Positions 3,589-39,677 are shown, numbered from the stretch's first letter. The stretch is DNA of 62,783 nt from an uncultured Oscillospiraceae bacterium (GCA_900547015.1 URFD01000001.1:1-62783), one strand, 5' to 3'. Notes: generated by a model not told the origin, from the sequence alone. Translations and numbers: made by a program.

Positions 3589-3605
3589 CGCAAGCCCCGA
3601 TACGC

Positions 3606-3643: not shown

Positions 3644-3654
3644 GTTCTGTTCTG

Positions 3655-5412: not shown

Positions 5413-5413
5413 C

Positions 5414-7171: not shown

Positions 7172-7308
7172 TCTTTTCTCATTTCCTCCATTGCATCGTT
7201 CATCTGTTGGTGATATGATTATAACACATTTTGAGATAAATAAAATATATTTTATTTCTATGATTCCTATAGCTTTTTTAGATACACCTGCCAAGGAGGT
7301 TTTTCCCG

Positions 7309-8196: not shown

Positions 8197-8231
8197 CATT
8201 CCGACCAGATTATCAGAGGAGGAACCCTACC

Positions 8232-9071: not shown

Positions 9072-9170
9072 TCTCAATTTCAGAACAGCAAAAAAACCGG
9101 GCAGACGGTTCCTTGGAGCCATCTGTCCGGTTTGTTGTTTTTGGGGGAAGTGCGGGGTGCTGTCGGGTGC

Positions 9171-10991: not shown

Positions 10992-11139
10992 GGGATCTCA
11001 CCTTTCTATTATAAAAGAATCGTTTCTGCTTGGAATCAGTACTTTATTATAGCACATCGTCTGGGTCTAGGGCAACGAAAAATTTTTGCCTTCCCCCTAC
11101 AAAAAAGGACAGCACAGGCCTCCCTGTGCTGTCCTGCTT

Positions 11140-13452
11140 TTATATCCCGTGCTTGACGCGGTCGTGCTCCTCAGCGCGCTTGGCGTTGTTGAAGTGCTCG
11201 AGCGAGCCGACCAGATATCCGGTGATGCGACGGATGCGCTCCATCGGCTGTTCGGGGGTTTCCTTCCTGCCGCATTTCGGGCACTCGTCCCCGATGATGC
11301 CGGTATAGCCGCAGGCTGGGTCCCGGTCTACTGGGTGATTGATCGAGCCGTACCCGATGCCCGACTCCTTCATACAGCGCACCAGCTGCATAAATGCCTC
11401 GATATTCTGGCAGGGGTCGCCGTCCAGCTCGACATAGGTGATGTGACCGCCGTCGGTCAGCGCATGGTAAGGCGCCTCCAGACGAATCTTGTCACAGGCG
11501 CTGATCGGGTAATAGACCGGGATGTGGAAGGAATTGGTATAGTAGTCCCGGTCGGTGATGCCGGGAATCGAGCCGAAGCGCTCCCGGTCGATTTTGACAA
11601 AGCGTCCCGACAGGCCCTCCGCCGGGGTAGCAATCAGCGAAAAATTCAGTCCTGTCCGCTCTCCTGCCGTCTGCATCCGCGCGTGCATATGACCGATAAT
11701 CTCTAGTCCCAGATTCTGGGCGTACTCGCTCTGCCCGTGGTGCTCGCCAATCAACGCCACCAGCGTCTCGGCAAGCCCGATGAAGCCGATGGTCAGCGTG
11801 CCGTGACGCAGCACCGGAGCCACCTCATCGTCCGGGCCGAGCTTGTCCGAATCCATCCAGACGCCCTGCCCCATCAGGAAGGGGTAGTTGAGCACCTTTT
11901 TCTGCCCCTGAATCCGCATCCGGTCCAGCAGCTGTCGGACGACCAAATCGATTTTGGCATCGAGCAGCTCAAAAAACAGGTCGAGATTCTTGCCGGCCAG
12001 CAGGCCCAGCCGCGGCAGATTGATGGAGGTGTAGGAGAGGTTGCCTCTTCCGGTCGTGATTTCCCGCTCGGGGTCATAGCGGTTCGCTGCCACACGGGTG
12101 CGGCAGCCCATATAGGCAACCTCGGTTTCCGGGTGACCCTCCCGGTAATACTGCAAATTAAACGGCGCATCCAAAAACGAGAAATTCGGGAAGAGCCGCT
12201 TTGCCGAAACCTCGCACGCCAGCCGGAACAAATCGTAGTTGGGGTCCTGCGGCTGATAGTTGACTCCCTCTTTGACCTTGAAGATATGGATTGGGAAGAT
12301 CGGGGTTTCCCCGTGTCCCAGCCCTTCCCGCTCTGCCAACAGGATGCTGCGGATGACCAGCCTGCCCTCCGGCGAGGTGTCGGTGCCGTAGTTGAGGGAG
12401 CTGAACGGGGTCTGTGCTCCGGCGCGGGAGTGCATGGTGTTCAGGCTGTGGATGAGCGACTGCATCGCCCGGTAGGTTTCCTCCTGCGTTTCCTGCTCGG
12501 CGTGCCGATGTGCAAAGCGCTGTGCCTGCTGTGCCTGCTCCTCGGTGCAGCCCAGCGCCGCAGTCAGCTGCTCCCGCTCTGCCCGGTCGTACTGCTCGTT
12601 GTCCTCCAAGCGGGGAGACAGCCCCTCCTGCTCCAGCCGGTCAAACAGCTCCGCCAGCTCGCACGGACCGTCACACAGCAGCTCACACGCCTTTTCCAGA
12701 TTGCACCGATAGCTGCTGCGGTAGGTCTTTCTGACGCCCGGCGCCATGTCGAAGTCAAACTTCGGTACACTCTGACCGCCGTGCTGGTCGTTCTGATTGG
12801 CCTGAATCGCCGTATAGGCAAGCGACGCATAGGCTGCGATGTCCTCCGGCTCGCGCAGATAGCCGTATCCGGAGTTAAAGCCGCCGTCGAACAGCCGGGT
12901 CAGGTCGATCTGACAGCAGGTGGTGGTCAGCGAAAAAAAGTCCAAATCATGAATGTGGATGTCGCCGCAGTCGTGGGCGCGCGCGTGCTCCGGGTCCAGC
13001 ACGAACATCTCGTAGAACGCCTTCGCACCCTCCGAGCCGTAGCGCAGCATGGTGCCCATCGCGGTGTTGCCATCGACATTTGCGTTCTCCCGCTTGACGT
13101 CATTCTCCGCCGCACTCTTAAAGGTCAGGTCCTCGTACACCTTCATCAGGGCGGTGTTCATCTCCCGCACCCGGGTTCGCTGTGCGCGGTAGAGGATGTA
13201 CTCCTTGGCGGTGCGGGAGTGTCCGTTCTCGATCAGCACCTTCTCCACCATATCCTGAATCTGCTCCACCGTCGGCGGCTGGTCCTTGGCGGTGGTTTCC
13301 TCCAACCGCTGCTCCACCTGCTGTGCCAACCGTTGAGCCGTCTGATAATCCTTGCCGCCCACCGAGGTCGCTGCCCGAAAGATTGCCCGGGCAATCTTCT
13401 CGACGTCGTAGGCTGCATGGCGTCCGTCGCGCTTGATGATAGTGTCGATCAT
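11140..13452 (-). CDS. nrdD: Anaerobic (class III) ribonucleoside-triphosphate reductase with N-terminal ATP cone
   Basis: IIKRDG ATP cone, IHIHDLD, MGCRT finger loop, YYTNSFH, RITGYL glycyl-radical motif. Confidence 0.95.
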   Translation of the reverse strand: MIDTIIKRDGRHAAYDVEKIARAIFRAATSVGGKDYQTAQRLAQQVEQRLEETTAKDQPPTVEQIQDMVEKVLIENGHSRTAKEYILYRAQRTRVREMNTALMKVYEDLTFKSAAENDVKRENANVDGNTAMGTMLRYGSEGAKAFYEMFVLDPEHARAHDCGDIHIHDLDFFSLTTTCCQIDLTRLFDGGFNSGYGYLREPEDIAAYASLAYTAIQANQNDQHGGQSVPKFDFDMAPGVRKTYRSSYRCNLEKACELLCDGPCELAELFDRLEQEGLSPRLEDNEQYDRAEREQLTAALGCTEEQAQQAQRFAHRHAEQETQEETYRAMQSLIHSLNTMHSRAGAQTPFSSLNYGTDTSPEGRLVIRSILLAEREGLGHGETPIFPIHIFKVKEGVNYQPQDPNYDLFRLACEVSAKRLFPNFSFLDAPFNLQYYREGHPETEVAYMGCRTRVAANRYDPEREITTGRGNLSYTSINLPRLGLLAGKNLDLFFELLDAKIDLVVRQLLDRMRIQGQKKVLNYPFLMGQGVWMDSDKLGPDDEVAPVLRHGTLTIGFIGLAETLVALIGEHHGQSEYAQNLGLEIIGHMHARMQTAGERTGLNFSLIATPAEGLSGRFVKIDRERFGSIPGITDRDYYTNSFHIPVYYPISACDKIRLEAPYHALTDGGHITYVELDGDPCQNIEAFMQLVRCMKESGIGYGSINHPVDRDPACGYTGIIGDECPKCGRKETPEQPMERIRRITGYLVGSLEHFNNAKRAEEHDRVKHGI

Positions 13453-13514
13453 GAACATTCTCCTTTGGCTTGCAAACATAAAAAGAGGGCGCATCCTTTG
13501 TGCCCCATGCCTTT

Positions 13515-26882: not shown

Positions 26883-26912
26883 AAATCCCCCACCTTTGTG
26901 GGGGATTTTTTT
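26883..26912. terminator. Terminator between ftsK and the convergent phage-like operon
   Basis: AAATCCCCCAC/GTGGGGGATTT followed by a T tract. Confidence 0.8.
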
Positions 26913-27389
26913 CTAGCCTTTTTTCGGAAAAACACAGTAAAAATAGGTCTTGCCGCTCTGGTTGAGCTGGCATTTTTTTCCGTCCGGCGGATTGTTGCTG
27001 TGGTTGGTCACTCGAAAACCCTTTGCCTCCAGCGCAATTCCCTTGCTGCATCCCAGACTGCTCATCATCCCCGCATACAGATTGACCGGCCCCGACGATG
27101 ATGGAACCACCATCGACTCACCGGACGCAAAGACGACCCCGAATCCCACCGCCTCCTCCAGCGTGATGGTTCGGGTCGAGCTGCCGTCCCCGGTATAGCT
27201 GCCGACGATTACGCCCGCCTTTCCCAGCTGCTGCCGCTCCTCCTCTGTGATATGCAGCTTCGATTCGATATGCTCCTGAAACTTCGCATCGATTGTCTGA
27301 TTGTCAAAATTCACATCCTCCATCTTGGGGTGGTCTGTTCCCACAAACCGATTTAAACCCAGATAGTTTGTCTTATAGCTGCTAGACAT
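26913..27389 (-). CDS. Short tail fibre / receptor-binding protein
   Basis: N-terminal KTNYLGLN..D.P.MEDVN.DN..ID fibre-anchor pattern, GSYTGDG and LN.SG.TY.Y C-domain; last gene after the baseplate. Confidence 0.6.
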   Translation of the reverse strand: MSSSYKTNYLGLNRFVGTDHPKMEDVNFDNQTIDAKFQEHIESKLHITEEERQQLGKAGVIVGSYTGDGSSTRTITLEEAVGFGVVFASGESMVVPSSSGPVNLYAGMMSSLGCSKGIALEAKGFRVTNHSNNPPDGKKCQLNQSGKTYFYCVFPKKG

Positions 27390-27993
27390 TCTGCACCTCC
27401 TGCCACTGCTCTGCACCCATCATTTCCAGCTCGGACCAGCTCTTGTCCAGTCTGTCCAGCTGTTCAAAGCTTCTGTCCAAAGCATCAAATTCCTCAAAAT
27501 TCAGTCCGCCGGTGACAAAGTCCGCCTCCAGATGGGCAGGCATCAGCGCAGAAAAGGCCCGCTTGGCCTCATCCAGCGTCATGCTGCTGTCCGCCATCTC
27601 CTGCGCTGTCACCGTGATTTTCTCCTCCCCGGGCATTTCTTTGACTGCCGCTCGGATGCCCAGCGCACCCAGCGCCCGTTCCAGTCCCTCCCGATGATAG
27701 TCGTTTGGGCTGATTGCCAGCTTGCTTTGGGCAATCCTTCTCCTGCTCTGGATTGGAATCGCAAGATTAACCGGGATCGAGAGCATCCGCTCAAATTCTG
27801 CCAATCGCTTCGGACTGCATCGGTCGGGCAGAAGATTCTGCTCCACCGCTGCGATTTGCTCCTCCAATGCCTCCAGCACACACAGATAGCCTTCCAGCTC
27901 GCACTCCACCAGACTGCGCTCTCCCTGCGCCAAACGGTAGATTCCCAGCGAGCGCATCCGCTCCATCATCTGTCTGCGGCAATTTCCCATCAC
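27382..27993 (-). CDS. Baseplate wedge protein (XkdU/YmfQ/Mu gp48-like, DUF2313)
   Basis: L..FERML.I..RR.I..KL and C-terminal MPAHL; follows baseplate J. Confidence 0.7.
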   Translation of the reverse strand: MMGNCRRQMMERMRSLGIYRLAQGERSLVECELEGYLCVLEALEEQIAAVEQNLLPDRCSPKRLAEFERMLSIPVNLAIPIQSRRRIAQSKLAISPNDYHREGLERALGALGIRAAVKEMPGEEKITVTAQEMADSSMTLDEAKRAFSALMPAHLEADFVTGGLNFEEFDALDRSFEQLDRLDKSWSELEMMGAEQWQEVQNV

Positions 27994-29069
27994 AGTGCCT
28001 CCCTCTGCCGTTGTGCCATCTCTCCGATTTGAATTGTACCTGCTGTAAAGATTTCCTTCTCCTGCGGATAGCTGTCCTGCGCCGGAGCCAGCACACGGCA
28101 GTTTGCAACGCCCGGACAGGATAACAGCTCCCGCACCAGAAGCGCCGGGTACAGCGGCTGCCCGATTTCAAAGGTTTCCAGATACTGCTTCCAGCGCTCC
28201 TGACACTGCTGACAAACATCTGCGATGCTGTATCCATCGGCTGCCGCAATTTCCGCCGTCAGGGTCACCGGACGCTCCACTGCCTGCTCCACGCTCAAAT
28301 CGACGTTGATTTCCTTCTTCTTTGAAATCTGCTCCTGCATCGTCCGCAGTAGCTGCTCATCCACCCCGGGGCCATAAACGACCACTCCGACCGTTCCTCG
28401 GCCCTTGTGTCTGGGCAGAACCCTTGCCGAGCGCACCCCGGCATAGCTCATCGCACACTGATGATAAAATGCACCGTTGGTTCCGTTGGTCACCATGCGG
28501 TAGCTGTCCATCAGGCGCTGTCGCAGGGATTGGTCACTTTCCGCGTCCTCTCCTGCGGTCATGGGACTCGGGTTGTTCACCGCCGCAATTCCCTGCACCG
28601 GGCTGATGATCACACGGAGCATCCCTGCCGCTAAATTTCCCTTTTTCCCTGCCACCTCGCTGCATACCGGAACCCGAACCTCGGTCTGTCCTCCTGCCAA
28701 AACCGCTTCCTGCACCGTAACAAACCGAAGCTGGCCGCTTCCTCCGGTCAGGGGTGTTCCCTTCGGAATCACAATGTCCTCCGCCGCAGGCACCGTTCTG
28801 GAAAAGACCACCTCTCCTCGGGCAAAGCTCGCAGGCTTTCGGCTCAGACCGCGCGCCGCCGCATGACGCTCCAATGCCTCTCCGCAGGCGGTCTGGGCAA
28901 ATGTCTGCCGCTTGACCTCCTCCAGCTGACCCTTGAGCATCGCCAGCTGCTCTGCCAGGATTTTCAGCCGAACCCCAATATCCGAAGCATCGTCCGCCTT
29001 CATCCCGGTCAGCTCCTCGTACCGACTCTGCATCTTCTGTAAAAATTCTCCCATGCCTTCCTCCACCAT
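27990..29069 (-). CDS. Baseplate J/gp47 family protein (XkdT-like)
   Basis: FAQTACGEALERHA..GLSRKPA..A.G.V.F, G..GN, GEDAESDQSLRQR, RGTVGV. Confidence 0.9.
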   Translation of the reverse strand: MVEEGMGEFLQKMQSRYEELTGMKADDASDIGVRLKILAEQLAMLKGQLEEVKRQTFAQTACGEALERHAAARGLSRKPASFARGEVVFSRTVPAAEDIVIPKGTPLTGGSGQLRFVTVQEAVLAGGQTEVRVPVCSEVAGKKGNLAAGMLRVIISPVQGIAAVNNPSPMTAGEDAESDQSLRQRLMDSYRMVTNGTNGAFYHQCAMSYAGVRSARVLPRHKGRGTVGVVVYGPGVDEQLLRTMQEQISKKKEINVDLSVEQAVERPVTLTAEIAAADGYSIADVCQQCQERWKQYLETFEIGQPLYPALLVRELLSCPGVANCRVLAPAQDSYPQEKEIFTAGTIQIGEMAQRQREAL

Positions 29070-29079
29070 GCTTCCCTCC

Positions 29080-29445
29080 TTAACCATTCAGCTCCCATTC
29101 CAGCCGAAACCGCTCCTCAACTTCTCCTTGACAGCACAGCTCCAGCTCCAAAAACAGGCTTTCCTCTCTGCGCTGTGCCTTCGCCGACAGCACCCGCACC
29201 TCTTTCAGCTCCAAAAGTGCCTCCTGTGCATATTCCAGCGCCAGCTCCTGCAAGCGGCCCGGCTCTCGGTTGCCCGTTCCCAGCTCATACAATCGACTGC
29301 CCAGCTCCGGGTCCAGCGCAAAACGTCCCTTCGGCACGGTCAGCCGAATGATGGCCTGCTGGATTTTCTCCGCTGTCCCCTCTGCCTGCTGTGGATAGCC
29401 TCGATCGTCCCGCCTGTGGTCGCCGTGATATAACACCAGATCCAT
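29080..29445 (-). CDS. Baseplate sheath-initiator (gp25/gp46/XkdS-like)
   Basis: IRLTVPKGRFALDPELGSRLYEL..AQEAL. Confidence 0.7.
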   Translation of the reverse strand: MDLVLYHGDHRRDDRGYPQQAEGTAEKIQQAIIRLTVPKGRFALDPELGSRLYELGTGNREPGRLQELALEYAQEALLELKEVRVLSAKAQRREESLFLELELCCQGEVEERFRLEWELNG

Positions 29446-29457
29446 GCTCTCTCCTCC

Positions 29458-29754
29458 TTACTCAAACACCTTGCCGTTGAGCAGGATTTTTCCGTCCGCA
29501 CACAGACGAATACTCGCTCCTCCTGCGGAGCGCAGCAGGATTTCTCCCTCCTGTAATTCAGGCTGTCGCTCCTGCACCGCTCCCAGACAGACCTTGTTTT
29601 CTCCCACCGACAACAGCAGTAGCTCCTCATCCTTCATCGGTCTTGCATAGATTCCGTACGGCGCGCAGACAGCTGCCGCCTCCATGCCCTGCCGTGTGCT
29701 CACAGCGCGCAGTTCTTCCTCCTTTGCCGAGGATGTTCTTCTTGCCAGCCACAT
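29458..29754 (-). CDS. Small baseplate spike-like protein (Mu gp45/XkdR slot)
   Basis: PYGIYARP, GEILLRS.GGASIRL..DGKI; located between hub and gp25-like genes. Confidence 0.55.
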   Translation of the reverse strand: MWLARRTSSAKEEELRAVSTRQGMEAAAVCAPYGIYARPMKDEELLLLSVGENKVCLGAVQERQPELQEGEILLRSAGGASIRLCADGKILLNGKVFE

Positions 29755-29776
29755 CGTTTTTCCACCTCTCCTGTTT

Positions 29777-30700
29777 CTATTCCAGCACCAGTCGGCTCAC
29801 CGCTCCGGATTCCCGGAATCTCAGCTCTCGCTCCACCAGATTTCCCCGGAAATACTGCCCGGTTCCCGGCACCTCCAGCAGCACCTCGCAGCCCAGCTCC
29901 CAGTCTGCGATTCCCGCCAGCTCCACCTCCCAGCGAACTCTCCCGCGCATCGATTCCTCCAACCGCAGCCCGGCATCCACACTGGTTTGCGCCCACTGCG
30001 CCGATGGAATCAGGCATCTTCTGCGCCGGATGTGCAGCCGTTTGGCCTCGCTGTTGTCGATTCCGCTGCTGTACCGTCCCTGTCCGTCCCGCACCAGCAC
30101 CTGAGAAATCACCTCGCTGCGCCGCACCGTTTTGCTCATCCGCAGTACTGGCTCCCGGGAGGAGATGACCCTTCTGCCTCTCCCCGGCAGCAGGAAGCGC
30201 ACCGTCCTTCCGTCCAGATAGGGGCGCAGCTTCACCGCTCGCTGACAAAATCGGCTGAATGCCTCCCATTCGCTGACTCCCTTGCTAACCTGATAGTGTT
30301 CCAGCACCGCCGAACGCTCCAAGTTTGCGGTAAATCCGTATGGTCGGATGTGCCGTTGGAACATCTGCTCCACCGAGATTCTGCTGTATTCCTGCGGAAT
30401 GGCCTCGTTGTCCAGCAGAACCGCCCCTTCCGAGCGTCCCCACAGCGTCAGCCGACGGCCCTGCGCTCCCATGCTCACAATCTGTCGGTCGCACATTCCG
30501 CAAAAAATTCTTCTGCCGTCGTACAGCAATTCCAGCTCTGCGATTTCTTCCTCCCAATCGCTCCCAAGGTCGGTCAGCACCACCGCACGCAGGCTGTCCG
30601 CCGGGGTGTCCACCGAGCTGATGCAGGAAAATTCCGTCACCAGCTCCCGCCGTCTTTCTCTGCCGTCCGGGGTCCATGTCCGAATCTGTGCCTGCTTCAT
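29777..30700 (-). CDS. Baseplate hub protein (Mu gpP/XkdQ-like)
   Basis: DTPADS, IFCG.CDRQ..L.GRS.GAVLLDNEA.P; synteny. Confidence 0.7.
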   Translation of the reverse strand: MKQAQIRTWTPDGRERRRELVTEFSCISSVDTPADSLRAVVLTDLGSDWEEEIAELELLYDGRRIFCGMCDRQIVSMGAQGRRLTLWGRSEGAVLLDNEAIPQEYSRISVEQMFQRHIRPYGFTANLERSAVLEHYQVSKGVSEWEAFSRFCQRAVKLRPYLDGRTVRFLLPGRGRRVISSREPVLRMSKTVRRSEVISQVLVRDGQGRYSSGIDNSEAKRLHIRRRRCLIPSAQWAQTSVDAGLRLEESMRGRVRWEVELAGIADWELGCEVLLEVPGTGQYFRGNLVERELRFRESGAVSRLVLE

Positions 30701-31047
30701 CCTTCTTTTCTCTCCTCAATAAACCGAAAGCGGTACCCGATGACCGCCTCTCCGCCGCTGCCCGTCATCTGCAAGCTCTCCAGCACCGCGCGCATCGGCT
30801 CCAATCCGGCTCCGCTGAGCACCCCGCTGCCACCCTCCATCAAGGCGCGCAGCTGGGCAAACTGCTCCATCGCATCCTCTCCGAACAGCTCTCCCTCTCC
30901 CTGCACCTCGCTGAGTCCCGAACCCAACTGCTGCAAGCTCTCTCCAAAGCCGCAGCAGACTGCGGATGCCGTCCGTTTTCTGTGGAGAACCACCAGCCTG
31001 CGCGGATTGTTCCGAAAGGTATATTCCTTAAATCGCAGATTGGTCAT
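30697..31047 (-). CDS. Tube-initiator / DNA-circularisation N-terminal-like protein (XkdP/Mu gpN slot, no LysM)
   Basis: LRFKEYTF.NNP..QQLG..GEGELFG..YRFRFIE; synteny. Confidence 0.55.
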   Translation of the reverse strand: MTNLRFKEYTFRNNPRRLVVLHRKRTASAVCCGFGESLQQLGSGLSEVQGEGELFGEDAMEQFAQLRALMEGGSGVLSGAGLEPMRAVLESLQMTGSGGEAVIGYRFRFIEERKEG

Positions 31048-31384
31048 ACAGCCACTCCTCCATTCCTCTGCCGTACCGCTGGGCCAGCCGTTCCAGCTCG
31101 TCCGAAATCTCCCGAATCGAATCTGCTCCTGTGCTTGCGGCCTCGCTCGGCTCAAACAGCTCCTGCTCCTCCCTCACGAGGATGGTTTCTTTCGGTTCTC
31201 GCAACTCCTCTGCGCTCCGAGGCTGCTCGCGCACCTGTGCCTGCTCCCTCTCTTGGAAGCCATCTCGACTGCGCTCCGTCACCGTCCGCTCCGCTTCGCT
31301 TTGCATCTCCACTGCGTTCTTCTCAAGCCGACCGCCCTCATACACCCTGCGGTTTTCTTCCAGCTTTTGCCTTACGATTTTCAA
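31028..31384 (-). CDS. Charged helical 118-aa protein in the tape-measure slot
   Basis: TTG start overlaps the upstream TGA; E/R/Q-rich; function inferred from position only. Confidence 0.5.
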   Translation of the reverse strand: MKIVRQKLEENRRVYEGGRLEKNAVEMQSEAERTVTERSRDGFQEREQAQVREQPRSAEELREPKETILVREEQELFEPSEAASTGADSIREISDELERLAQRYGRGMEEWLYDQSAI

Positions 31385-31674
31385 TTCTCTCCGCTCCCGC
31401 CTTCATACCGATTCTGATACTGCGCGGCAAGCTCTGCAATCCTGCTCAGTCCCATCTTTCTGAGCACCTGTCTGGCATCCTCAAAGGCCCTTTTGCCGCC
31501 TCGATTCAGAGCCAGAGACAGCAGAGCCGCGTTGCCTGCGACCGCCCACAGACAACGCTCCTCCTCTTCGCTGATTGTTCCGCAGATGTCCTTGAGATAG
31601 ACAAACGCTTCCTGCGCTCTGCCGTCCAGCTGTAATTCCTCCGCCGCCGACAGCCCTCTCATTCTGTACCTCAT
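31381..31674 (-). CDS. Putative tail assembly chaperone
   Basis: 97 aa, RGLSAAEEL motif, directly after the tube gene. Confidence 0.5.
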   Translation of the reverse strand: MRYRMRGLSAAEELQLDGRAQEAFVYLKDICGTISEEEERCLWAVAGNAALLSLALNRGGKRAFEDARQVLRKMGLSRIAELAAQYQNRYEGGSGEN

Positions 31675-31685
31675 CTGCCCATCTC

Positions 31686-32060
31686 CTATAACTTGATTCT
31701 TCTGCTTGCCACCAAGCTCACCTTTTCCAGAACGACCTCTCCCACCGAAGCCGCCTGTGTGATGTCCGCCCACTCGCATCCGGTGTAGATGATCTTGCTG
31801 TCCGGCAGTACGATGACCAGATTGAAGCCGCTCAGCTCATAAAAGTCGATTCCTTCCTTCTGGTTCAGGCACACTCTGGACAGCTCAATCCAGTGCTTGA
31901 CTCTGCCGCCCACCGTGCCCACCGGCTCTGTGCTGCCAAAGGCCTCGATGTATCGGCTCTCCCTCGAGGATTTCACTCGGTAGCTCTGCGCCGCCGCCAC
32001 CTTCCGACCGTTTACCTCCAAATAAATGTCCGCGCTGGTCGGGATTGAAACCAATGCCAT
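31686..32060 (-). CDS. Putative tail tube protein
   Basis: Beta-rich 124 aa after the sheath gene; IYLEVNGRKVA, YTGCEW..E.V. Confidence 0.65.
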   Translation of the reverse strand: MALVSIPTSADIYLEVNGRKVAAAQSYRVKSSRESRYIEAFGSTEPVGTVGGRVKHWIELSRVCLNQKEGIDFYELSGFNLVIVLPDSKIIYTGCEWADITQAASVGEVVLEKVSLVASRRIKL

Positions 32061-32072
32061 CCTCATCCCTCC

Positions 32073-33116
32073 TTAGACTGTGATGTGTGCGGTCAGATAG
32101 ATTTGGCTGAGCACCGCCGCCAGATGGAATTCCAGCTCCACCACGCACACCGTCGGGTCGCTCTCCTCCGGATAGACCACCGGCGGCTCAAAATCCACCA
32201 GCACTCCCTGCTGCTTCTTTTCATCCAGCACCACCGCCACCTGCGAGGAAATGCTGTCGGGGCCAAGCCTTCTTCCCGTTCCTCTCAGCATCCCTTCCAG
32301 CCTTTCCCGCACCGAGCGGATGATGTCGTCAATCATCAGCACCGTATTCACCGAAGCAAAGGTTCTGTCCGCTTCTCCTGCCGTCATGGTTCGGGTGGTC
32401 ACACAGCGGATACACTCCACTCTGCCTGCATTTTCTTCCAAAGCGGTCACACCGCCGCCCAAAAACTGCTCCACCTGCTCCTCGCTCAGGCTTTCCACCG
32501 TCTCCAGCCCAAGCTCTGCTCCGCAAAAACTCTCATCCGGCTCTGCCGTTGCCAGCATCGCCGCGATTGCCGCGGCCGCCGCCAGTCTCGAATCCTTCGC
32601 GCTCTGCGCACACAGCACCATTCGCTCGCTGTTCATCTGCTTTGCCGCCGCAAGGGCTTTTTCCGGTAGGATTGCCCCGACGCCGATTCGCTCCTTCTGA
32701 TTCTCCGAAGCCTCCTGCACCTTTCGGCACAGCAGCTGCAAGACCTCCTCCTCACAGCTGCCGCACATCATCACGCCGCTGCGCTTGATTTCGCACAGCC
32801 TGCCGATAGCATCGGTATATTCCTCGGTGGTCGGTTTCCTGCCGTCGATTGTGATTGGCACAGCATATACCCCTGCCGCACCGCCCTCCAACAGCACCCT
32901 GCACACCTCGCAAAAATCCTTTCCCGCTCCCTGCTCGGAAAAATATTCTCTCAGCTGGGCAAGCGAGCTCAGCTGGACCACTCCGCCTGCCGGCAGATGT
33001 TTTCCCTGCTGTAAGACCGCCGCACCGCAGTAAAAGGCATAACAATCCTGTCGGCTGTGCGGCCTGCTGATAATGTCATACCGGGAGTACACTCCCGGAC
33101 GATAGCTCTTTTTCAT
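32073..33116 (-). CDS. Contractile tail sheath protein (compact)
   Basis: N-terminal RPGVY; C-terminal GGVT.L..IR.VTT..V..VLMIDDI sheath domain. Confidence 0.8.
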   Translation of the reverse strand: MKKSYRPGVYSRYDIISRPHSRQDCYAFYCGAAVLQQGKHLPAGGVVQLSSLAQLREYFSEQGAGKDFCEVCRVLLEGGAAGVYAVPITIDGRKPTTEEYTDAIGRLCEIKRSGVMMCGSCEEEVLQLLCRKVQEASENQKERIGVGAILPEKALAAAKQMNSERMVLCAQSAKDSRLAAAAAIAAMLATAEPDESFCGAELGLETVESLSEEQVEQFLGGGVTALEENAGRVECIRCVTTRTMTAGEADRTFASVNTVLMIDDIIRSVRERLEGMLRGTGRRLGPDSISSQVAVVLDEKKQQGVLVDFEPPVVYPEESDPTVCVVELEFHLAAVLSQIYLTAHITV

Positions 33117-33589
33117 CGGCTCTCTCCTTTCCTGATAATGCGGAAACCCTCGGGATACGGGCCTTCCGTTCCCGGCGCCTCACCGCTGATGACCCACTCG
33201 CAGCACAGCTTCACCGGCAGTACCACACCGTTCCAATCCTTTTGCCAGACTGCCTCTGAGCATTCGATTTGGGTCAGTTTCAGCTGCGGGTGAAACAGCA
33301 GTCTCTGCGCGCACCGCTCCCACAGCTCCCAACATTCCTCTGCACTCGGACAGCACAGCGACAGCTTGAGCCACACCTGTGCGAGCCGTCCTGCCTTCTG
33401 CTGTCCGTCATACAGATTTCCCAACCCCAGCGGGGACAGCCCCACCTTCTGGATTCCCAGCACCGCCAGCCGTCCCAGCTGTGGATTGGGGCGCATCCGG
33501 GTCGAAAAGGCGGTTCGCACCTCCAACTCCGGCTCGCCCTGCCGAAGCACCTGACGAACCTGCTCCAGCATCTGGAGAAACTCACCCAT
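33113..33589 (-). CDS. Putative tail terminator/completion protein
   Basis: 158 aa between neck and sheath genes; stop overlaps the sheath ATG. Confidence 0.5.
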   Translation of the reverse strand: MGEFLQMLEQVRQVLRQGEPELEVRTAFSTRMRPNPQLGRLAVLGIQKVGLSPLGLGNLYDGQQKAGRLAQVWLKLSLCCPSAEECWELWERCAQRLLFHPQLKLTQIECSEAVWQKDWNGVVLPVKLCCEWVISGEAPGTEGPYPEGFRIIRKGESR

Positions 33590-33911
33590 CTGCTCGGCCT
33601 CCTTCCTGCACTCGGGAAGCGATTCCCCACAGATATGCGGCATCCTTCCCCCAAAACACCGGCTCCATCCGTTCGAGCAGGTAGCTTGTGCCGCCGCACT
33701 CAAACACCACTCCGCGTCTGGCGTGCTCCTCCTTGTCTGCTGAAACAAGGACCAGCCAACGCTCCGGCTCGCTTCGTCCGGCCTCGCCCGATTGCAGCAC
33801 CCCTGTCCGCTCACGCATCGGGTTCAGATAAGCTAAAAAGCTCCCGGTCGGAAACTGTACGACCCTTCCACACTGTCGAATCAGCCGCCCGACCACCTGC
33901 GCTGTCTGCAA
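33582..33911 (-). CDS. Putative head-closure protein
   Basis: 109 aa, RBS AAGGAG, neck position. Confidence 0.5.
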   Translation of the reverse strand: MQTAQVVGRLIRQCGRVVQFPTGSFLAYLNPMRERTGVLQSGEAGRSEPERWLVLVSADKEEHARRGVVFECGGTSYLLERMEPVFWGKDAAYLWGIASRVQEGGRADG

Positions 33912-33915
33912 ACCA

Positions 33916-34254
33916 CTACACTCCTTTCAGGCAGATTCCCTGCGAATCCATCAGGTCACCCACCATCTCCATCAGTTCCTTTCTGGCCTGCGCACCGTCG
34001 CTCTGGGTAAAGGAAATATCGCCCACCCGAACCGCCGAGCACACCGTTCCCTGAACCGTCTGAAATCGGTGGTTGGCTAGAGCGGCACAGGCCAGTGCCA
34101 GCCGCTGTTCATGCTTTGCTGGATCGACGCTCGGCCTCAGCCTACCCTTCAGGTCCTCCCAGCAGGCCAGCACCAGCGGCTCCCACTCCTGCGCTTGTTC
34201 CGCCTTCAGCCCGCTGACCAGACAAAAATCCTTCATCAATAACCGTTCGTCCAT
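33916..34254 (-). CDS. Putative head-tail adaptor
   Basis: 112 aa, helical with ACAALA and VRVGDISF hairpin; directly after the capsid gene. Confidence 0.6.
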   Translation of the reverse strand: MDERLLMKDFCLVSGLKAEQAQEWEPLVLACWEDLKGRLRPSVDPAKHEQRLALACAALANHRFQTVQGTVCSAVRVGDISFTQSDGAQARKELMEMVGDLMDSQGICLKGV

Positions 34255-34263
34255 ACGCTTCCC

Positions 34264-35274
34264 CTATTTTCCCAGCACCTTGACTGCCTCTGGGAAGATT
34301 TTGGAAAATCCTGCAATGGCAGTCACCGCCGCACGCTCCAGCTGGCAGTCGATGAGCTTGTCATATTCCACCTGAATTCCGCCTGCCTGTACCTTTTCCA
34401 GCGCATAACGCTTGTCCAGACCGATGATGCAGCCCTCCGGCACTGCTGGGGATACAAACAGCTTCGCACCCAGCGGAGTGGTCAGACAGCCGGTTGCCTG
34501 AAAGTTCAGTCCGGTCTCCGGATTCTGTAATTCCGGAATCTGCAAAATCTTCAGCATCATGTCCGGGCTTGCCAGCATTACGTTCATCTGATACTCTCCA
34601 AAGCTGCCCCAAAGGTTCAGCAGGTCGGTGTAGGTCAGCTGACCGGCATTAGCCAGCTTCACCCTCTGTGCCGGATTGTGGTTGCCGTCACCCTCCATCA
34701 GCACACGAACCGCGTCCTGCAACTGTGCCTTGCCGATGCATGCGCCAATCTGCTTGAGTGCCACCGTGAACAGATCCAGTCTCTGGAACTTGATTGCCTC
34801 ATAGGAGGCCACCATCATTCTGCCGCGTTTTTTCAGCTGGATTAAGCTCTCCTTAAGTCGGATGGTCGTCTCCGGAATAAAGCCGCCCTCCTCGATGACC
34901 GACGGAGCATCCTCCTCCCAGTTCGGGTCGGACACGATTGCGCGGTAGTCCATCCCCTCAATCTCGGTCTGCGCCGCGCAGATTTCCTCCAGAATGTGGT
35001 TGGCATCCACGCCCTGCTTCACCGCACGGGAAACATACTCCGGAAACAGCGCCGCACTGTCCGATGTCGCAAAAAACTTCTGCAAACGGTCGCTGTCCTG
35101 ACCGGACACCTTGATGTCAAATCGCTTGAGCTGTCTCTGAAAGGCATCATAGCCGCCAAGCTCGGTTCCGTGGTACTGCTCGCTCGGGTCCAGACGCTCC
35201 AGACATTTGGAAAAGCCCTCCGCTGTCTTGTAAAAATCCTTGGAAATATTGATGTTCTGATAGTTGTACTTCAT
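34264..35274 (-). CDS. Major capsid protein (HK97-like fold inferred)
   Basis: 336 aa; LFPEYV, VIEEGG.IPE E-loop, LKKRGR..SYEAI, C-terminal D..ALE..E.D..Q pattern. Confidence 0.85.
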   Translation of the reverse strand: MKYNYQNINISKDFYKTAEGFSKCLERLDPSEQYHGTELGGYDAFQRQLKRFDIKVSGQDSDRLQKFFATSDSAALFPEYVSRAVKQGVDANHILEEICAAQTEIEGMDYRAIVSDPNWEEDAPSVIEEGGFIPETTIRLKESLIQLKKRGRMMVASYEAIKFQRLDLFTVALKQIGACIGKAQLQDAVRVLMEGDGNHNPAQRVKLANAGQLTYTDLLNLWGSFGEYQMNVMLASPDMMLKILQIPELQNPETGLNFQATGCLTTPLGAKLFVSPAVPEGCIIGLDKRYALEKVQAGGIQVEYDKLIDCQLERAAVTAIAGFSKIFPEAVKVLGK

Positions 35275-35318
35275 CGTTCACTTCACTTCTCCTCTTCCTG
35301 TATTTTGGCAACCATGGC

Positions 35319-35660
35319 CTAAAATAAAATTCCTACATTTTTTGCGGTTGTGTTGACCTCTGTTGCCAGCACCTCACGGCCGCTCTCGGATAAAACCGCA
35401 TCCGCCTTGCTGTCCGCCGCCAGCTTGATAAAGCCCACCTGCGGGTCGCTGCCGGAATAGTGCAGCACCGCAAAGCCGCCGGTCTGAACCAGTGCGTGCT
35501 CTCCTCTCATCGAGCGCACCACCCCTGCAAATTTTCCCGAAGCTGCCTTCTTCACCGTGTTGTCCGCGCACATCACAACCAGGTCTCCCGGCTCCGCTGT
35601 GCCCTCGCATTTCATCGTGACATACTGGCTGTTAAAGCCCTGCATACAAATTTCCTTCAT
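35319..35660 (-). CDS. Putative capsid decoration/cement protein
   Basis: 113 aa, GDLV..V..A..FAGVV..VQTGG pattern; between protease and capsid; RBS GGAGG. Confidence 0.55.
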   Translation of the reverse strand: MKEICMQGFNSQYVTMKCEGTAEPGDLVVMCADNTVKKAASGKFAGVVRSMRGEHALVQTGGFAVLHYSGSDPQVGFIKLAADSKADAVLSESGREVLATEVNTTAKNVGILF

Positions 35661-35671
35661 TTGCTCTCCTC

Positions 35672-36643
35672 CTAAATGATGAATCTCTTGTCCGAATCCT
35701 GACCGCCTGCTTTTTCTTCCTCCCAGCCGAACTGCGATGCCTTCAGCCTCTGCGGACTGCGGCAGAGCATCTGTCTCAGCGCCTTCATCTGCTCCACCGT
35801 CATCCCATCCAGCATCTTGGAAAGGGAGCGGTTCACCGCCTCGTCCGGCTCTCCCTTTGCAAAGACCTCCTGCATTACCTGTCGGCGGGCGCATCTTCTG
35901 GTCTGCTCGCAGTCCTCCATCAGGTTTTTCATCCTGCCCTGTAACTGGCAAACCTCCTCGCAGCTCAGCCACAGTCCCTGATTTCTTCCGGCTGCCTGCC
36001 ACAGCTTTTCCACGCTGTCGCCCGTTCTCTCGCCCAAGCTCTTGATGACGCCTGCCGAGCGCTGCGCCGGCACTGCCACAAACGACCACTCATAGGCATC
36101 TGCCGCCCCGTGCAGAACGGTGCAGCACAGTTTGCCGTCATACACCTCTCCGGGAATATGCTCACAGCCGTGCTGACCGCGCTCTCTGCCGCAGATGGAG
36201 CATCGTCCGCCCTGCACACTGCACCCGACGCTCACCTCTTTTTTGATTCCCGCCTCGATTTCCAGAATCAGGTCGCGGTTGCGTTCGGTTCTCACCATGT
36301 ACGCCTTTGCCACCAGCGCACAGTATGGCTGACCCAGCAGGTTTGTTCTGCCTTCCTCGCGCTCTACCCTCGCCTCATAGATTCTCGCCTGCTGATTTCG
36401 GCTCACCGCCTCGTGGTCACAGATGCCGGTCTTGCCGACAAACAGCCCAGCCAGCTCCTCCAGCGTCTGCTCGTCGAACTGCTCCCACTCTCGGTCTACC
36501 TCGTTGTCGCACAGCACCACGCGGAAGCAGTACAGCTCCTCCTCCTGAAATTCCCTTCTGGTCAGGCGGTTGATCTGCTCCAGCTCCTCCTGACCCAGCT
36601 TCATCTCCCTGCACAGCAGGTTTCCCGACTTGCTGCATCTCAT
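35672..36643 (-). CDS. Prohead protease/scaffold with Cys/His zinc-like insert
   Basis: DH, EVSVG and EWSFVAVPAQ..A resemble caudoviral prohead proteases; CSICG..C.H..C insert; helical C-terminus. Confidence 0.65.
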   Translation of the reverse strand: MRCSKSGNLLCREMKLGQEELEQINRLTRREFQEEELYCFRVVLCDNEVDREWEQFDEQTLEELAGLFVGKTGICDHEAVSRNQQARIYEARVEREEGRTNLLGQPYCALVAKAYMVRTERNRDLILEIEAGIKKEVSVGCSVQGGRCSICGRERGQHGCEHIPGEVYDGKLCCTVLHGAADAYEWSFVAVPAQRSAGVIKSLGERTGDSVEKLWQAAGRNQGLWLSCEEVCQLQGRMKNLMEDCEQTRRCARRQVMQEVFAKGEPDEAVNRSLSKMLDGMTVEQMKALRQMLCRSPQRLKASQFGWEEEKAGGQDSDKRFII

Positions 36644-37824
36644 CGTTTTCCTTCCCCTTTCTTCTCCATCGCCTGCTCGATCTGTCTGGCCTGCGCCTGT
36701 AGCAGTTGGGCTCTGGCCTGTTCCACCTCATCGGTAATGCTGACCGGTTTCCACTTCACCTGAATTTCTCCGCCCAGCCCCTTGAGCGCCAGATGATATC
36801 GGCACACCTTCAGGATGACCGAGGTCAACAGCTGTCGATAGCTTTCCAGCTCGCTTGCCAAAATTTCCGCCTGCTGCTGGCTCATGCGCTCGGTGGTGGA
36901 CCAGCTCAGTCCCAGCACAAACGGTGGCAGTCCCAGCTTCGCCACAATCTGTTCGAGCATCTGACGCACCGGAATCTGGCTGTCGATGATCTGATTGTCC
37001 GCACCGATTACCCGAATCCCCACATCGCCCACCGCTACAAAGTCCCTTGTCTGCTCTGTGTCCATCGTCTGGGACCACTGCTGCGCCATTTCCTGGGCAA
37101 TTTCCCGGGCATACGCTCCGTCCACATTTCCCTGCGGATGATAGGTCACCGCAAAGCGCAGATTTCCCATCCGCTCAAAGTTCTGTCCGATGGACTGATA
37201 GATGTTCAGCAGGATGGAGGTCACAAACGGCAACCCCGACAACAGCGACCGTCCCCGCACCTCACCTGCCGCCGGATTCAGTGCGCTGAACACGATTCGC
37301 TCCGGGTGCTCCACCGGCTGCTCGGTCACTCCGTCCGGATAGCTGTAAAACTGCATCCCGGTCGGCTCCTCGCCGCGCTTGACTAAAATCCTCTTGAGCG
37401 GGATGTTGCACAGCGCCCCGACGCCGTCCCCGTCCCAGGTCGGAATCATCTCTCCGGCTGCATTTCCGTAGGTCAGCAGGTTGTCCAGATAGCAGCAAAG
37501 AAACTGCTCGATTCCCACCGATGCCGGGCCCACCTGAACATTCCTGCAAAACAGGTCCAGCTCCTTCTGAACCTGACGGTCGTCACACTCCACCGAAAAC
37601 GGCCCCACCAGCCGAATCAGCTTGCTGATGGCCGCATCCACGATCGGCACAGCCTGCCGAATCTGGTCAAACAGCCGGTTTTCACTCTCGTCCAGCAGTC
37701 CCAGCCGCTCCAGCCTCCCAAACGGGTCGGTGTGGATTTGTCCGCCCTGCACGCTCTGCGCGGCTGCCGGCGGCTTCTCCCGACCCCGTTTCCTTCTCCA
37801 CATCGGTCTTTGCAAATTCCTCAT
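36640..37824 (-). CDS. Phage portal protein
   Basis: Follows TerL with ATGA overlap; PIVDAAI, LLTYGNA.GE, G.SLL, IVAKLGLPPFVLG. Confidence 0.8.
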   Translation of the reverse strand: MRNLQRPMWRRKRGREKPPAAAQSVQGGQIHTDPFGRLERLGLLDESENRLFDQIRQAVPIVDAAISKLIRLVGPFSVECDDRQVQKELDLFCRNVQVGPASVGIEQFLCCYLDNLLTYGNAAGEMIPTWDGDGVGALCNIPLKRILVKRGEEPTGMQFYSYPDGVTEQPVEHPERIVFSALNPAAGEVRGRSLLSGLPFVTSILLNIYQSIGQNFERMGNLRFAVTYHPQGNVDGAYAREIAQEMAQQWSQTMDTEQTRDFVAVGDVGIRVIGADNQIIDSQIPVRQMLEQIVAKLGLPPFVLGLSWSTTERMSQQQAEILASELESYRQLLTSVILKVCRYHLALKGLGGEIQVKWKPVSITDEVEQARAQLLQAQARQIEQAMEKKGEGKR

Positions 37825-39068
37825 CCTTTCCTCTGGCTTCTGCTGTGTGCCACGGCAAAAAATCCGCCTTGGCTTTCTCTGCAAACCTCCATCGCAAAAT
37901 ATCGGATGTCATCCATCGCGTGGTCGTTCTCCTTGACTGGCTGGTCATTTCCCAGCCCCTCGTTCCATCGGTATAAGGAAAACTCCCGCAGACTGTCCGT
38001 ACATCCCGCACAGAACTTCAGCCGTTCCTCCTGTAGCAGTCGGGACACCAGCTGGATTCCCTCCACCACCTGATTCTTTGCCGGAACCACCCGAAACCGC
38101 CCGTGCCGACGGATACATTCCATCATGCTCGCCGCGCTCGGGTCGATGATGACCGCCTCGATGACCGTGTCGCCGCACAGCCGTTCCAGCTCGGCATAAT
38201 ATTCCTCGTCGGTTTTGCAGACACCCTGCCTGCGTGCATCGTGGTAATACTCTCGGATTCGGTACCACCTTCCTCCGCTTTCTCCCCACAACCCCATCGA
38301 GCAGGGATTCATCGTCCCGTAATCGCACGAAACCCAAAATCTCCTGCACTGGGGCGCTTGCTCGACCAGGTGCTTCTCTCTGGAAAACATCGGGTACACC
38401 AGCCCCTGCGGACTGCACCACTCTCCCAGCACAAAGCGCTTGTAAAAGCTGCCGCTGTACAGCCGCTCATACCGCTGCCGCATCTGTCTGGACAGCGAGG
38501 GGTTGTCCTCCATCCGAAAGTGCAGATAGCACAGATTTTTTTCCTCTCTCTTCTGAATCCACTCGGTGTAAAACCAATGGCCCGGATGCTCCGGATTGCA
38601 GTTAAACCACAGCCTGCTTCCTTCCACCGAACACCGCGCGGCAGCCTGCTCCACAAACTCCCGCTCCTGCAAGGCTGCCTCGTCAAACAGCGCACCGCCC
38701 AGCGTCATTCCCTGAATCCTGCCTGCGCTGCCTGCGTCGTGTCCCGAAAACAGGTAATATCGGTTGCGCCGCCCCGAAACACTCAGCTCCACCCAGTTTT
38801 CCGAAACCTTCTCCTTCCAGCCAAAGCCCAGCTCCTCCAGCAGTGGTCGCAGCGGCTCCAGCAGATTGCGTTTGACACCCGCTATTGTCTTGCCGCACAG
38901 GGCAAACTGCTTTCCCTCCATGCTGCCCATGCTCCATAAAAAGAAGGAAAGCCCCATGCAGATGGTTTTTCCGCTCCTCACCGCCCCGTCGCAGATGATA
39001 CCGTCATACCCGTAATATCGGCTCTGCGGCAGCCACCAGCTCATCAGCGTCCGCTGCTTTTTGCTCAA
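37821..39068 (-). CDS. Terminase large subunit (PBSX family)
   Basis: Walker A GAVRSGKT, Walker B LFDEA, NCNPEHP.HWF, nuclease DYG..IDPSA..KENDHAMDDIRYF. Confidence 0.93.
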   Translation of the reverse strand: MSKKQRTLMSWWLPQSRYYGYDGIICDGAVRSGKTICMGLSFFLWSMGSMEGKQFALCGKTIAGVKRNLLEPLRPLLEELGFGWKEKVSENWVELSVSGRRNRYYLFSGHDAGSAGRIQGMTLGGALFDEAALQEREFVEQAAARCSVEGSRLWFNCNPEHPGHWFYTEWIQKREEKNLCYLHFRMEDNPSLSRQMRQRYERLYSGSFYKRFVLGEWCSPQGLVYPMFSREKHLVEQAPQCRRFWVSCDYGTMNPCSMGLWGESGGRWYRIREYYHDARRQGVCKTDEEYYAELERLCGDTVIEAVIIDPSAASMMECIRRHGRFRVVPAKNQVVEGIQLVSRLLQEERLKFCAGCTDSLREFSLYRWNEGLGNDQPVKENDHAMDDIRYFAMEVCRESQGGFFAVAHSRSQRKG

Positions 39069-39514
39069 GTTCTTGATTCTTCTGATTCTTCTCCCTCCTG
39101 TGCGCTCTGCTGTAAGGCTGTCAGCAATCCCTGAAATCCGGATGCGTCCCGTTCCTCCTGCTCCATCTGGGCAAGCCTGATTAACAGCTCACAGGCCTTG
39201 AGCTTGTCCCAAAACTGATACTCCGCCTCTTTGCCCTTGTATCGCTCCACCGCAAACCCGTCCGTGAAAGGATTTCCGTCCCGGTCGATCTGCGGCGCCG
39301 CAAACAGGATTCTGCTCAGTCCTGCCTTGGCTGTCTGAGCCGCCGAGCTTTTTCCCAGCAATCGGTTCATCCTTCTCAGCTGTGCCTGAACCCTTCGCTG
39401 TCCCAGCAGAGCCGCTCCGTTGTCCATCCCGATTTTCTGGGCTGCCAGCTGTGGGTCTCTCGTCACAAAGCACCAGTAGGCAAACTCCTGCGCCTGCTCC
39501 TTTTCCAGTTCCAA
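39065..39514 (-). CDS. Terminase small subunit-like protein
   Basis: EFAYW..AAQKIG N-terminus and WDKLKACELL resembling TerS DKLKALELL; TTG start after GGGGAG. Confidence 0.6.
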   Translation of the reverse strand: MELEKEQAQEFAYWCFVTRDPQLAAQKIGMDNGAALLGQRRVQAQLRRMNRLLGKSSAAQTAKAGLSRILFAAPQIDRDGNPFTDGFAVERYKGKEAEYQFWDKLKACELLIRLAQMEQEERDASGFQGLLTALQQSAQEGEESEESRT

Positions 39515-39637
39515 TTTTCTCTCCCCCCTTTTTGCCCTTGCACCTATCCCCATTTTTTCCGCAAAAATTGCCCCGAAAAGGGCAATAACTACACATTTTC
39601 AAAAAATTTTCTTCCCGGATTTCCCTCAAAAAAGGGC

Positions 39638-39677
39638 AAAAAAAGAGGAGCCGCCTCCTTTCGGAAGCAGCTCCTCT
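39638..39677 (-). terminator. Terminator separating the G5/3D gene from the phage-like operon
   Basis: AGAGGAGCTGCTTC..GAGGCGGCTCCTCT + T7 on the minus strand. Confidence 0.8.

Follow-up and report, generated by a model that had tools for sequence, protein, structure and literature searches.

The 62,783-nucleotide stretch analysed here, URFD01000001.1:1-62783 from the assembly GCA_900547015.1 of an uncultured Oscillospiraceae bacterium and hereafter called the window, carries on its minus strand, at 26913-39514, a compact cluster of phage-type head, packaging and contractile-tail genes. An initial annotation of this DNA proposed the cluster as a candidate new gene transfer agent (GTA), a host-maintained particle that packages host DNA. 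The cluster, a full set of head, packaging and short contractile-tail genes in about 12.6 kb, is vertically inherited under purifying selection. It is likely to be no prophage but the structural core of a GTA-type particle system that derives from a phage and is maintained by the host.

ORF calling over the window confirms 20 co-oriented, intact and tightly packed open reading frames (ORFs) in the block, whose 12,792 coding bases exceed its span of 12,602 bases because the frames overlap. The short overlaps that the annotation had recorded are found at the gene junctions as TTGA, ATGA (three times), TTGA and GTGA, together with two overlaps of 8 bases. The block is also bounded as described, by terminators and by the host genes ftsK and G5/3D. 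A terminator-like hairpin with a 15-pair stem followed by a T run (39644-39677, minus strand) parts the G5/3D gene from the cluster, and a second, with an 11-pair stem and a T run (26883-26908, plus strand), lies between ftsK and the last tail gene. All 20 flanking proteins tested, from both sides of the cluster, have host functions, which include FtsK, a Clp-like protease, an aldolase, the G5+3D protein, an ECF S component, HMP kinase, HflX and the sporulation protein YpeB. A functional temperate myovirus would carry contiguous lysogeny, replication and lysis modules; here, housekeeping genes abut both ends of the cluster, as they also do in its relatives.

The first gene, g01 (39065-39514, minus strand, as are all genes of the cluster), has no Pfam match of its own, and its assignment as a Terminase_2-like small terminase subunit (TerS) has support at the profile level. 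In an alignment of g01 with 13 relatives (A4), 4 of the 14 members match Pfam Terminase_2, the best at 1.2e-17, and the profile of the alignment matches the SF6-type small terminase of PDB entry 3zqp at 4.5e-6; g01 is therefore identified as TerS. Its probable start is a TTG at 39514, with an ATG in frame at 39553. Relative to other genera in the same alignment, the TerS of the window's genus has six residues fewer in the helix-turn-helix region, a deletion that would fit a loosened sequence specificity. The large terminase subunit (TerL) is g02 (37821-39068), which matches Terminase_6N at 1.3e-13, Terminase_6C at 9.5e-4 (under the cut-off) and phrog_2 at 1.3e-47, and the portal is g03 (36640-37824; phrog_30703, 7.4e-120), with a probable ATG start at 37824.

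The next gene, g04 (35672-36643), encodes a conserved head-module protein that matches phrog_16951, a family of unknown function, at 9e-87. It has neither a Pfam match nor a PDB sequence match, and a PDB profile search gave just two chance-level matches (E about 0.06). Six of its residues, H77, S138, C148, C151, C160 and H162, are invariant in an alignment of 30 sequences (A3), and from its position the protein may be a prohead protease fused to a scaffold. It is followed by g05 (35319-35660), a small decoration-like head or virion protein (phrog_4588, 'virion structural protein', 1.1e-16), and by g06 (34264-35274), the major capsid protein (Phage_capsid_4, 1.9e-10; phrog_3922, 4.3e-94). The interval between capsid and sheath holds three small proteins, g07, g08 and g09 (33113-34254), which have no family match in Pfam or PHROG and whose labels as head-completion, neck and tail-terminator proteins follow from position; their order is conserved in relatives of the genus.

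The tail module opens with the sheath gene, g10 (32073-33116; Phage_sheath_1C, 1.3e-6; phrog_279, 4.8e-25). The label of g11 (31686-32066) as a putative tail tube comes from its place after the sheath and from a match to phrog_985, 'virion structural protein', at 4e-6; no search names a tube, and its best family, phrog_27038 (4.4e-35), is of unknown function. Within the core of the genus the g11 protein is 80-89% identical. The chaperone slot g12 and the 118-aa tape-measure slot g13 (together 31028-31674) are named by position and match no Pfam or PHROG family. The slot protein measures 118-192 aa in other genera, and a length of 118 aa in this position implies a very short tail.

The baseplate region begins at 29777-31047 with g14, a small conserved baseplate-proximal protein in the initiator slot, whose family was found in 36 loci, and g15, a gp44-like hub (phrog_177 baseplate hub, 5e-14; Gp44-like_2nd, 0.009). 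The spike slot g16, which matches a family of unknown function (phrog_25991, 1e-8), and the gp25/W-like slot g17, with weak matches to phrog_975 (5e-4) and phrog_180 (7e-3), occupy 29080-29754. The last three genes, at 26913-29087, encode baseplate J (g18; Baseplate_J, 8.9e-45), a Mu gp48-like protein (g19; Phage_Mu_Gp48, 4e-8, under the Pfam cut-off) and a small fibre-slot protein (g20), of which the N-terminal 50 aa alone match phrog_33092 (3.8e-5). The order of hub, spike slot, gp25/W slot, J, gp48-like protein and fibre slot is that of a Mu/P2-type myovirus baseplate; unlike a phage of that type, the cluster has no transposition or replication, lysogeny or lysis modules, and its tape-measure slot is far shorter. 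The virion-order labels of the initial annotation thus stand by family searches for TerS, TerL, portal, the small head protein, capsid, sheath, hub and J, whereas those of the protease, the two neck proteins, terminator, chaperone, tape measure, initiator, spike, gp25-like protein and fibre come from position or weak matches.

Vertical inheritance and purifying selection

The annotation had called for tests of copy number, synteny, congruence with the species tree and selection, and each of these came out in favour of domestication. The source genome, a 1.71-Mb assembly of 188 contigs that is 90% complete, contains one TerL match. In an even sample of the order, a capsid profile matched 48 of 401 genomes, always in a single copy; these matches fall in six families, with none in the other 24.

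An orthologue of TerL is present in 11 of the 16 other genomes of the genus, at 61-72% identity, and in eight of these 11 all 20 genes are retained in order with intact frames. G5/3D lies directly upstream in eight of the 11 and ftsK also downstream in four; in the remaining three, the cluster stands beside other neighbours. TerL and capsid are both absent from the other five genomes, which are 77-99% complete. A host tree built from four markers unites these five in a single clade (98% support), and their sister species carries the cluster, a pattern that fits one loss and not the patchy presence that would have spoken against domestication. A direct 'empty site' was not found in the cluster-less species, whose G5/3D homologues are 38-47% identical and lie in another context, without ftsK or other window neighbours.

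Co-divergence with the host was assessed from four host markers (HflX, phosphoglucomutase, NrdD and a DHH pyrophosphatase) and four head-module proteins (TerL, portal, g04 and capsid). NrdD was represented by the closer of two gene sets, as two NrdD genes with an identity of about 59% occur in the source genome (window 11140-13494 and G000:C8:462-2705) and in several relatives. Pairwise protein distances of head module and host correlate with r 0.92 over 153 pairs from 18 genomes (Mantel p 0.0002) and with r 0.93 within the genus, and those of tail module and host with r 0.92 over 78 pairs. Because kin are not independent, the congruence of the trees carries more weight than this correlation. 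Host, head and tail trees have in common the genus clade, a ten-species core and three sister pairs, with support of at least 95 throughout; the grouping of two of the sister pairs has the same support in the host and head trees and also appears in the tail tree, from which genome G001 was left out. Evolutionary rates of the cluster proteins exceed those of the host markers about two- to fourfold.

In the only unsaturated pair of genomes, G006 and G010, dN/dS over 4007 codons is 0.088 at a dS of 0.15, and no single gene exceeds 0.17, so selection is not relaxed. For other pairs dS is saturated (above 1 or undefined), and their dN/dS of 0.13-0.19 is a rough guide only; values for ftsK were set aside on account of misaligned low-complexity parts. 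These data bear directly on the possibility that the cluster is an inert prophage remnant in which decay has not yet begun. Its loss in one clade of the genus, showing that it is not essential, is in keeping with such a remnant. However, all 20 frames are intact here and in the eight genus relatives with full loci, every gene is under purifying selection, the same architecture recurs in 36 species records and a conserved regulatory element is kept upstream. An inert remnant is, with these observations, hardly credible.

A shared upstream element and dispersed loci

The regulatory element lies at 39535-39611 on the minus strand, starting about 30 bases past the G5/3D terminator and ending about 20 bases before the TerS start. 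It comprises an A/T tract, a 7-bp inverted repeat with the consensus GTTGCAC-N6-GTGCAAC, exactly 18 nt and then TATRGGTGAAAGG. It is present in all nine aligned loci of the genus, and an iterated nhmmer search of 94 loci located it in 34, in each case immediately before TerS and at no other position. Across 38 aligned copies, the arms of the repeat pair in 89.4% of cells, compared with 81.6% after shuffling (none of 500 shuffles was as high); five of the seven arm pairs have changed on both sides, and shifted controls pair in 22-48% of cells. The element is probably a promoter with an operator, and we infer one of the activator type, with a dimer site over the -35 position. Alternatively, the inverted repeat may act as an RNA hairpin.

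A scan of the whole source genome found three copies of the element: that of the cluster, one on contig C43 and one on contig C3. The C43 copy directly precedes genes for a GH25 endolysin (1e-29), an LL-H-type holin (5e-11) and a 100-aa coiled-coil membrane protein, and adjoins rimP-nusA. The absence of holin and endolysin that the annotation had reported accordingly holds for the window but not for the genome. The C3 copy precedes a 143-aa winged-helix gene with weak helix-turn-helix matches (G000:C3:1990-2510, L303). This gene and its element sit wedged, as if inserted, between cbiQ-like and cbiO-like genes of a cobalt ECF transporter, the latter with an ABC ATPase match and the former named by eye. 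The shared element before the cluster, the endolysin-holin cassette and the winged-helix gene suggests that these loci may form a co-regulated system, to judge from the DNA pattern.

Searches with the exact element pattern gave 2-4 copies in six cluster-bearing genomes of the genus, a single copy in a seventh, a copy at an unrelated-looking site alone in an eighth and none in the cluster-bearing G004, G010 and G016. None was found in any of the five cluster-less genomes, and a reversed control gave 0-1 per genome. Extra copies stand before homologues of the winged-helix gene in G009 and G007, and others precede GH25 genes at two loci of G013 and in G004, G019 and G031. A covariance model of the element detected a second copy in Ruminococcus sp. 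JE7B6, whose genome is complete; this copy immediately precedes a lone holin gene, for which all 30 Atlas matches are Phage_holin_4_1. Two further copies were found in Oscillibacter sp. PC13. A third PC13 match (E 0.004), weak and before unrelated-looking genes, was left uncounted. At E up to 0.01, the same model (R1) gave no copy in the Youxingia genome and the cluster copy alone in two other isolates.

Distribution and the search for phage relatives

Relatives of the capsid protein are encoded in at least 593 species records (one genome per species, 600 candidate stretches). By record title, the best are Clostridium sp. CAG:169 (86%) and Negativibacillus sp. (83%), followed at 54-61% by Youxingia, Anaerotruncus, Oscillibacter, Dysosmobacter, Lawsonibacter, Flavonifractor, Ruminococcus and Acutalibacteraceae. 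Isolates whose titles place them among the carriers of the cluster family are Oscillibacter valericigenes, Oscillibacter sp. PC13, Anaerotruncus sp. G3(2012), Flavonifractor sp. An100, Ruminococcus sp. JE7B6 and Youxingia wuxianensis. An Atlas search with the capsid returned only Bacillota or virus capsid clusters, none of them named to genus.

Of 80 loci taken from the at least 593 species records, 53 were long enough for their architecture to be judged. Sheath and J are both present in 36 of the 53, with 11.1-12.8 kb from TerL to the last tail match; seven have J without a sheath match, in about 9.6 kb, and five of these are titled Ruminococcus; the remaining ten have the head module alone in common with the query. 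At L079:11727-12625 and other loci of the Ruminococcus type, head-completion and baseplate genes are only about 900 bases apart. This gap leaves no room for sheath, tube and tape measure together, and the baseplate of such particles may sit almost directly under the head.

The surroundings of the cluster were surveyed by crude calling and clustering of ORFs in some 98 related loci, each with flanks of up to 10 kb. No flank family recurs in more than 10 of these loci. Pfam matches were obtained for 26 of 30 flank-family representatives, and all but one are housekeeping, among them PGK, TPI, iPGM, DegV, SpoU, AddA/AddB, a two-component pair, PBP5, GlgB/GlgC, TrkA/TrkH, RF3 and GerA. Fixed sites recur outside the genus as well: in a second clade of several genera the cluster adjoins SpoU-DegV-PGK-TPI-iPGM in five loci, and in an Oscillibacter group it adjoins AddA/AddB, again in five. 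The exception among the representatives is a gene with a CHAP (cell-wall hydrolase) domain, which lies about 2 kb past the tail end in three of its four loci (L056:20336-21023, L060 and L091, titled Dysosmobacter or Clostridia); the fourth, L044 with the title Oscillibacter, has it upstream of the cluster. In the Dysosmobacter/Clostridia-titled lineage this gene may serve local lysis.

Neither the 20 neighbours in the window nor the 30 flank-family representatives scanned include an integrase, repressor or replication family, in agreement with the initial annotation, and no recombinase family was seen in either set. Head, packaging and tail genes thus occur without integration, repression or replication genes of their own.

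In the phage collection INPHARED, the capsid query matched five unannotated faecal 'Bacteriophage sp.' scaffolds at 46-58% identity, and no cultured phage at more than 27%. The longest of the scaffolds (L028, MT835508.1; 46.7 kb) has a host-like aldolase gene, 40% identical, beside the head module, and may therefore be a chromosomal fragment; L028, L029 and L030 are all entered there under 'Bacteriophage sp.'. A relative is encoded by at least 546 IMG/VR records, the best 80 of which comprise 46 of 10-18 kb, 30 shorter than 10 kb and four above 20 kb. Many of these records start and end with the cluster, such as one of 12,756 bases with matches from 31 to 12,753. No complete phage with the head module was found in INPHARED or among the best 80 IMG/VR records, and the closest homologues found are thus not in complete temperate phages. 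A second TerL, 45-52% identical, was observed at other loci of four relatives. Three of these loci, L025 (G024:C6), L026 (G049:C7) and L027 (G016:C25), with TerL identities of 45-51%, hold no other gene of the cluster and are presumably unrelated prophages with a related terminase.

These searches allow a further alternative to be weighed, in which the cluster is part of a mobile element, a capsid-forming satellite or small temperate phage, with its integration and replication genes beyond the sequence surveyed. Virus-finding pipelines have filed both sets of records as viral, DnaD-like genes with the same upstream element occur in two relatives, and the related TerL stands at unrelated loci of four. 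Nevertheless, no integrase or recombinase family was found among the flank families, a tRNA scan of the window gave no tRNA (att repeats were not searched for), and the cluster occupies the same site across species and genera, co-diverges with its host and is always accompanied by one capsid gene per positive genome. A mobile element is very improbable on this evidence. A satellite of the cf-PICI type in particular would depend on a helper phage and carry its own integrase, replication and regulatory module, no part of which module is seen in the flanks; the cluster, by comparison, has its own tail genes. Taken together, single copy, synteny, co-divergence, dN/dS and the want of a complete phage relative support domestication.

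Known particle systems and a proposed mechanism

One system for comparison is RcGTA of the Alphaproteobacteria, a vertically inherited head-tail cluster under purifying selection that has no life-cycle genes and whose further loci, including lysis, lie elsewhere in the genome under common control. The present system is alike in each of these respects save the last, as common control is here deduced from the shared DNA element alone. RcGTA belongs to another phylum and has a non-contractile tail, in contrast to the contractile tail encoded here, and its regulators, CtrA and GafA, are to our knowledge unrelated to the present system. Tailocins and extracellular contractile injection systems lack capsid, portal and terminase, whereas TerL, portal and capsid are present and conserved in the cluster.

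PBSX of Bacillus subtilis, a defective phage that packages DNA of its host, is comparable in that it has a contractile tail and comes from a Firmicute. Its tail is long, and its regulators and lysis genes stand beside the structural genes. The cluster could similarly encode a killer, with DNA-filled heads and contractile tails that kill related strains without gene delivery. A contractile tail with a full baseplate under purifying selection and a lysis cassette with the same control element would both suit such a particle, and sequence alone cannot separate killing from transfer; the report of a GTA in Faecalibacterium, FpGTA, voices the same doubt about its own particles (PMC12946183). On the other hand, the tail is no better conserved than packaging motor, portal and capsid, which would be needless for a pure killer, and the 118-aa tape-measure slot, a label from position, implies a very short tail. 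Moreover, in 175 cluster loci no lysis, winged-helix or DnaD-like gene, and no PBSX-like regulator, lies within 10 kb of the cluster. A killer of this type is consequently judged unlikely.

The same report (PMC12946183, Nat Commun 2026), in the parts of it consulted, describes GTA-like packaging as the commonest packaging of bacterial DNA in virus-like particles (VLPs) from the human gut, with fragments of 4.6-8.9 kb mainly from Ruminococcaceae and Oscillospiraceae. It identifies a gene cluster only in Faecalibacterium, and records packaging in several other Ruminococcaceae, Oscillospiraceae and Christensenellaceae for which genes were not found. FpGTA I consists of 10 ORFs in 10.5 kb and FpGTA II of baseplate, fibre, holin and endolysin genes; the capsids, of about 40 nm, are podovirus-like with no visible tail, and the word 'sheath' is absent from the text of the paper seen. 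A mouse transductomics preprint from 2026, likewise consulted in part, lists GTA candidates in Coprocola and Pelethomonas without such a cluster. In a full-text search of the literature, of which supplements may list related loci, no description of the contractile-tailed cluster or of its control element was found.

Compared by description, FpGTA resembles the present system in a host from the same broad group of gut Clostridia, in a compact operon that starts with TerS, TerL, portal, a scaffold-like gene and capsid, in a holin and endolysin at a separate locus, and in its near-ubiquity within its genus. Its TerS has no obvious DNA-binding domain, and the TerS of the window's genus is six residues shorter in this region. 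The two differ in that FpGTA has a ten-ORF operon without sheath or tube and a baseplate and fibre at a second locus, whereas here 20 ORFs, with sheath, tube and whole baseplate, form one 12.6-kb block. No Faecalibacterium name appears among the best 120 of at least 7998 scored capsid relatives in a protein search, and the capsid family was found in none of 10 genomes of the largest genus sampled within the window's family. The 'candidate new GTA' of the initial annotation survives as a domesticated cluster, while its novelty is weakened: the kind is already known and has recently been reported in these bacterial families (PMC12946183). What appears new here is the contractile mini-tail form, its presence in several families and the cis element tying the cluster to lysis and small DNA-binding genes.

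A GTA-type particle system of this composition would operate as follows. A DNA-binding factor acting on the inverted repeat would switch on all loci together, probably in few cells, and TerS and TerL would fill small HK97-type heads by headful packaging. Since the element itself would neither excise nor replicate, the packaged DNA should be mostly that of the host. The heads would then be fitted with very short contractile tails, and the particles, released by the holin and GH25 endolysin, would inject their DNA into related cells.

Several observations weigh against this interpretation. The particle system is known here from its genes alone, and the cluster is dispensable, as five of the 16 genus genomes do without it. 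The placement of G009 differs between the head and host trees, the sole well-supported conflict, and in the pair G006-G010 (L118 and L119) dS is a mosaic, at 0.2-0.55 at the cluster ends and in G5/3D and 0.004-0.07 from g05 to g14, which suggests a recent recombination patch inside the cluster; some recombination has thus occurred. In G008 and G009, element copies precede genes with Lin1244_N and DnaB_2 (DnaD-like) domains, so that some phage replication-type genes may still be in play. With the queries used, a close endolysin orthologue (at least 74% identity) is present in only three other genus genomes and the winged-helix gene at high identity in two; the accessory loci are therefore not uniformly conserved. 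Nor is the element exclusive to the particle system, given that G014 holds 38 copies of it, compared with 1-2 in the other four genomes searched and none in a reversed control. Finally, the hint of expression is weak, coming from four short contigs in one metatranscriptome that may derive from library DNA. These lie on the sheath-tube junction, sheath, capsid and portal, with others on host genes; cover of the run is thin, at 19 of 30 bins, and the covered parts alone are informative.

The copies in G014 often form tandem arrays of about 170 bases, as at L215:572-941 and L216:515-963, and L221 has two upstream of its TerS. They have no common downstream gene theme and no obvious partners, and a search for Rfam and tRNA matches gave none that explains them, only an unrelated 6S RNA and a cobalamin riboswitch. 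The element of this genome looks like one that has spread.

A wider joint reading can be put forward tentatively, with more doubt than confidence. The clusters would represent an ancient, vertically inherited, multi-locus GTA with a miniature contractile tail across Oscillospiraceae, Ruminococcaceae and Acutalibacteraceae (families by record title), and this GTA would be the genetic basis of the short-fragment, GTA-like packaging seen in gut VLPs. Reduced derivatives of it would be the Ruminococcus forms that lack a sheath and measure about 9.6 kb, with the 'podovirus-like' FpGTA perhaps another, and a small winged-helix or DnaD-like factor taken over from the ancestral phage would drive all loci through the inverted-repeat promoter.

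GTAs are known from few lineages, and among Gram-positive gut anaerobes one gene cluster has been tied to particles (PMC12946183, in the parts consulted). The cluster family supplies concrete candidate genes for the packaging seen without genes in related families, and with the shared element linking it to lysis, production, packaging, regulation and transfer become directly testable. If the proposed system is real, it would point to an important path of gene flow, under host control, among abundant bacteria of the gut, and thousands of 'viral' database records, the IMG/VR set included, would be chromosomal host systems.

The window itself recurs in public sequencing data. Seventeen runs contain at least half of its sampled words, and the 19 runs that hold such words come from seven studies of animal gut, manure and fermentation metagenomes. 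A 33-kb DNA contig from another strain, about 2.3% different, contains the intact cluster within a stretch reaching from ftsK to HMP kinase. Three DNA runs contain related strains with an 18-base insertion at window position 39615, in the leader just upstream of the conserved element, and the same strains have small compensating indels near 31454-31462, inside g12.

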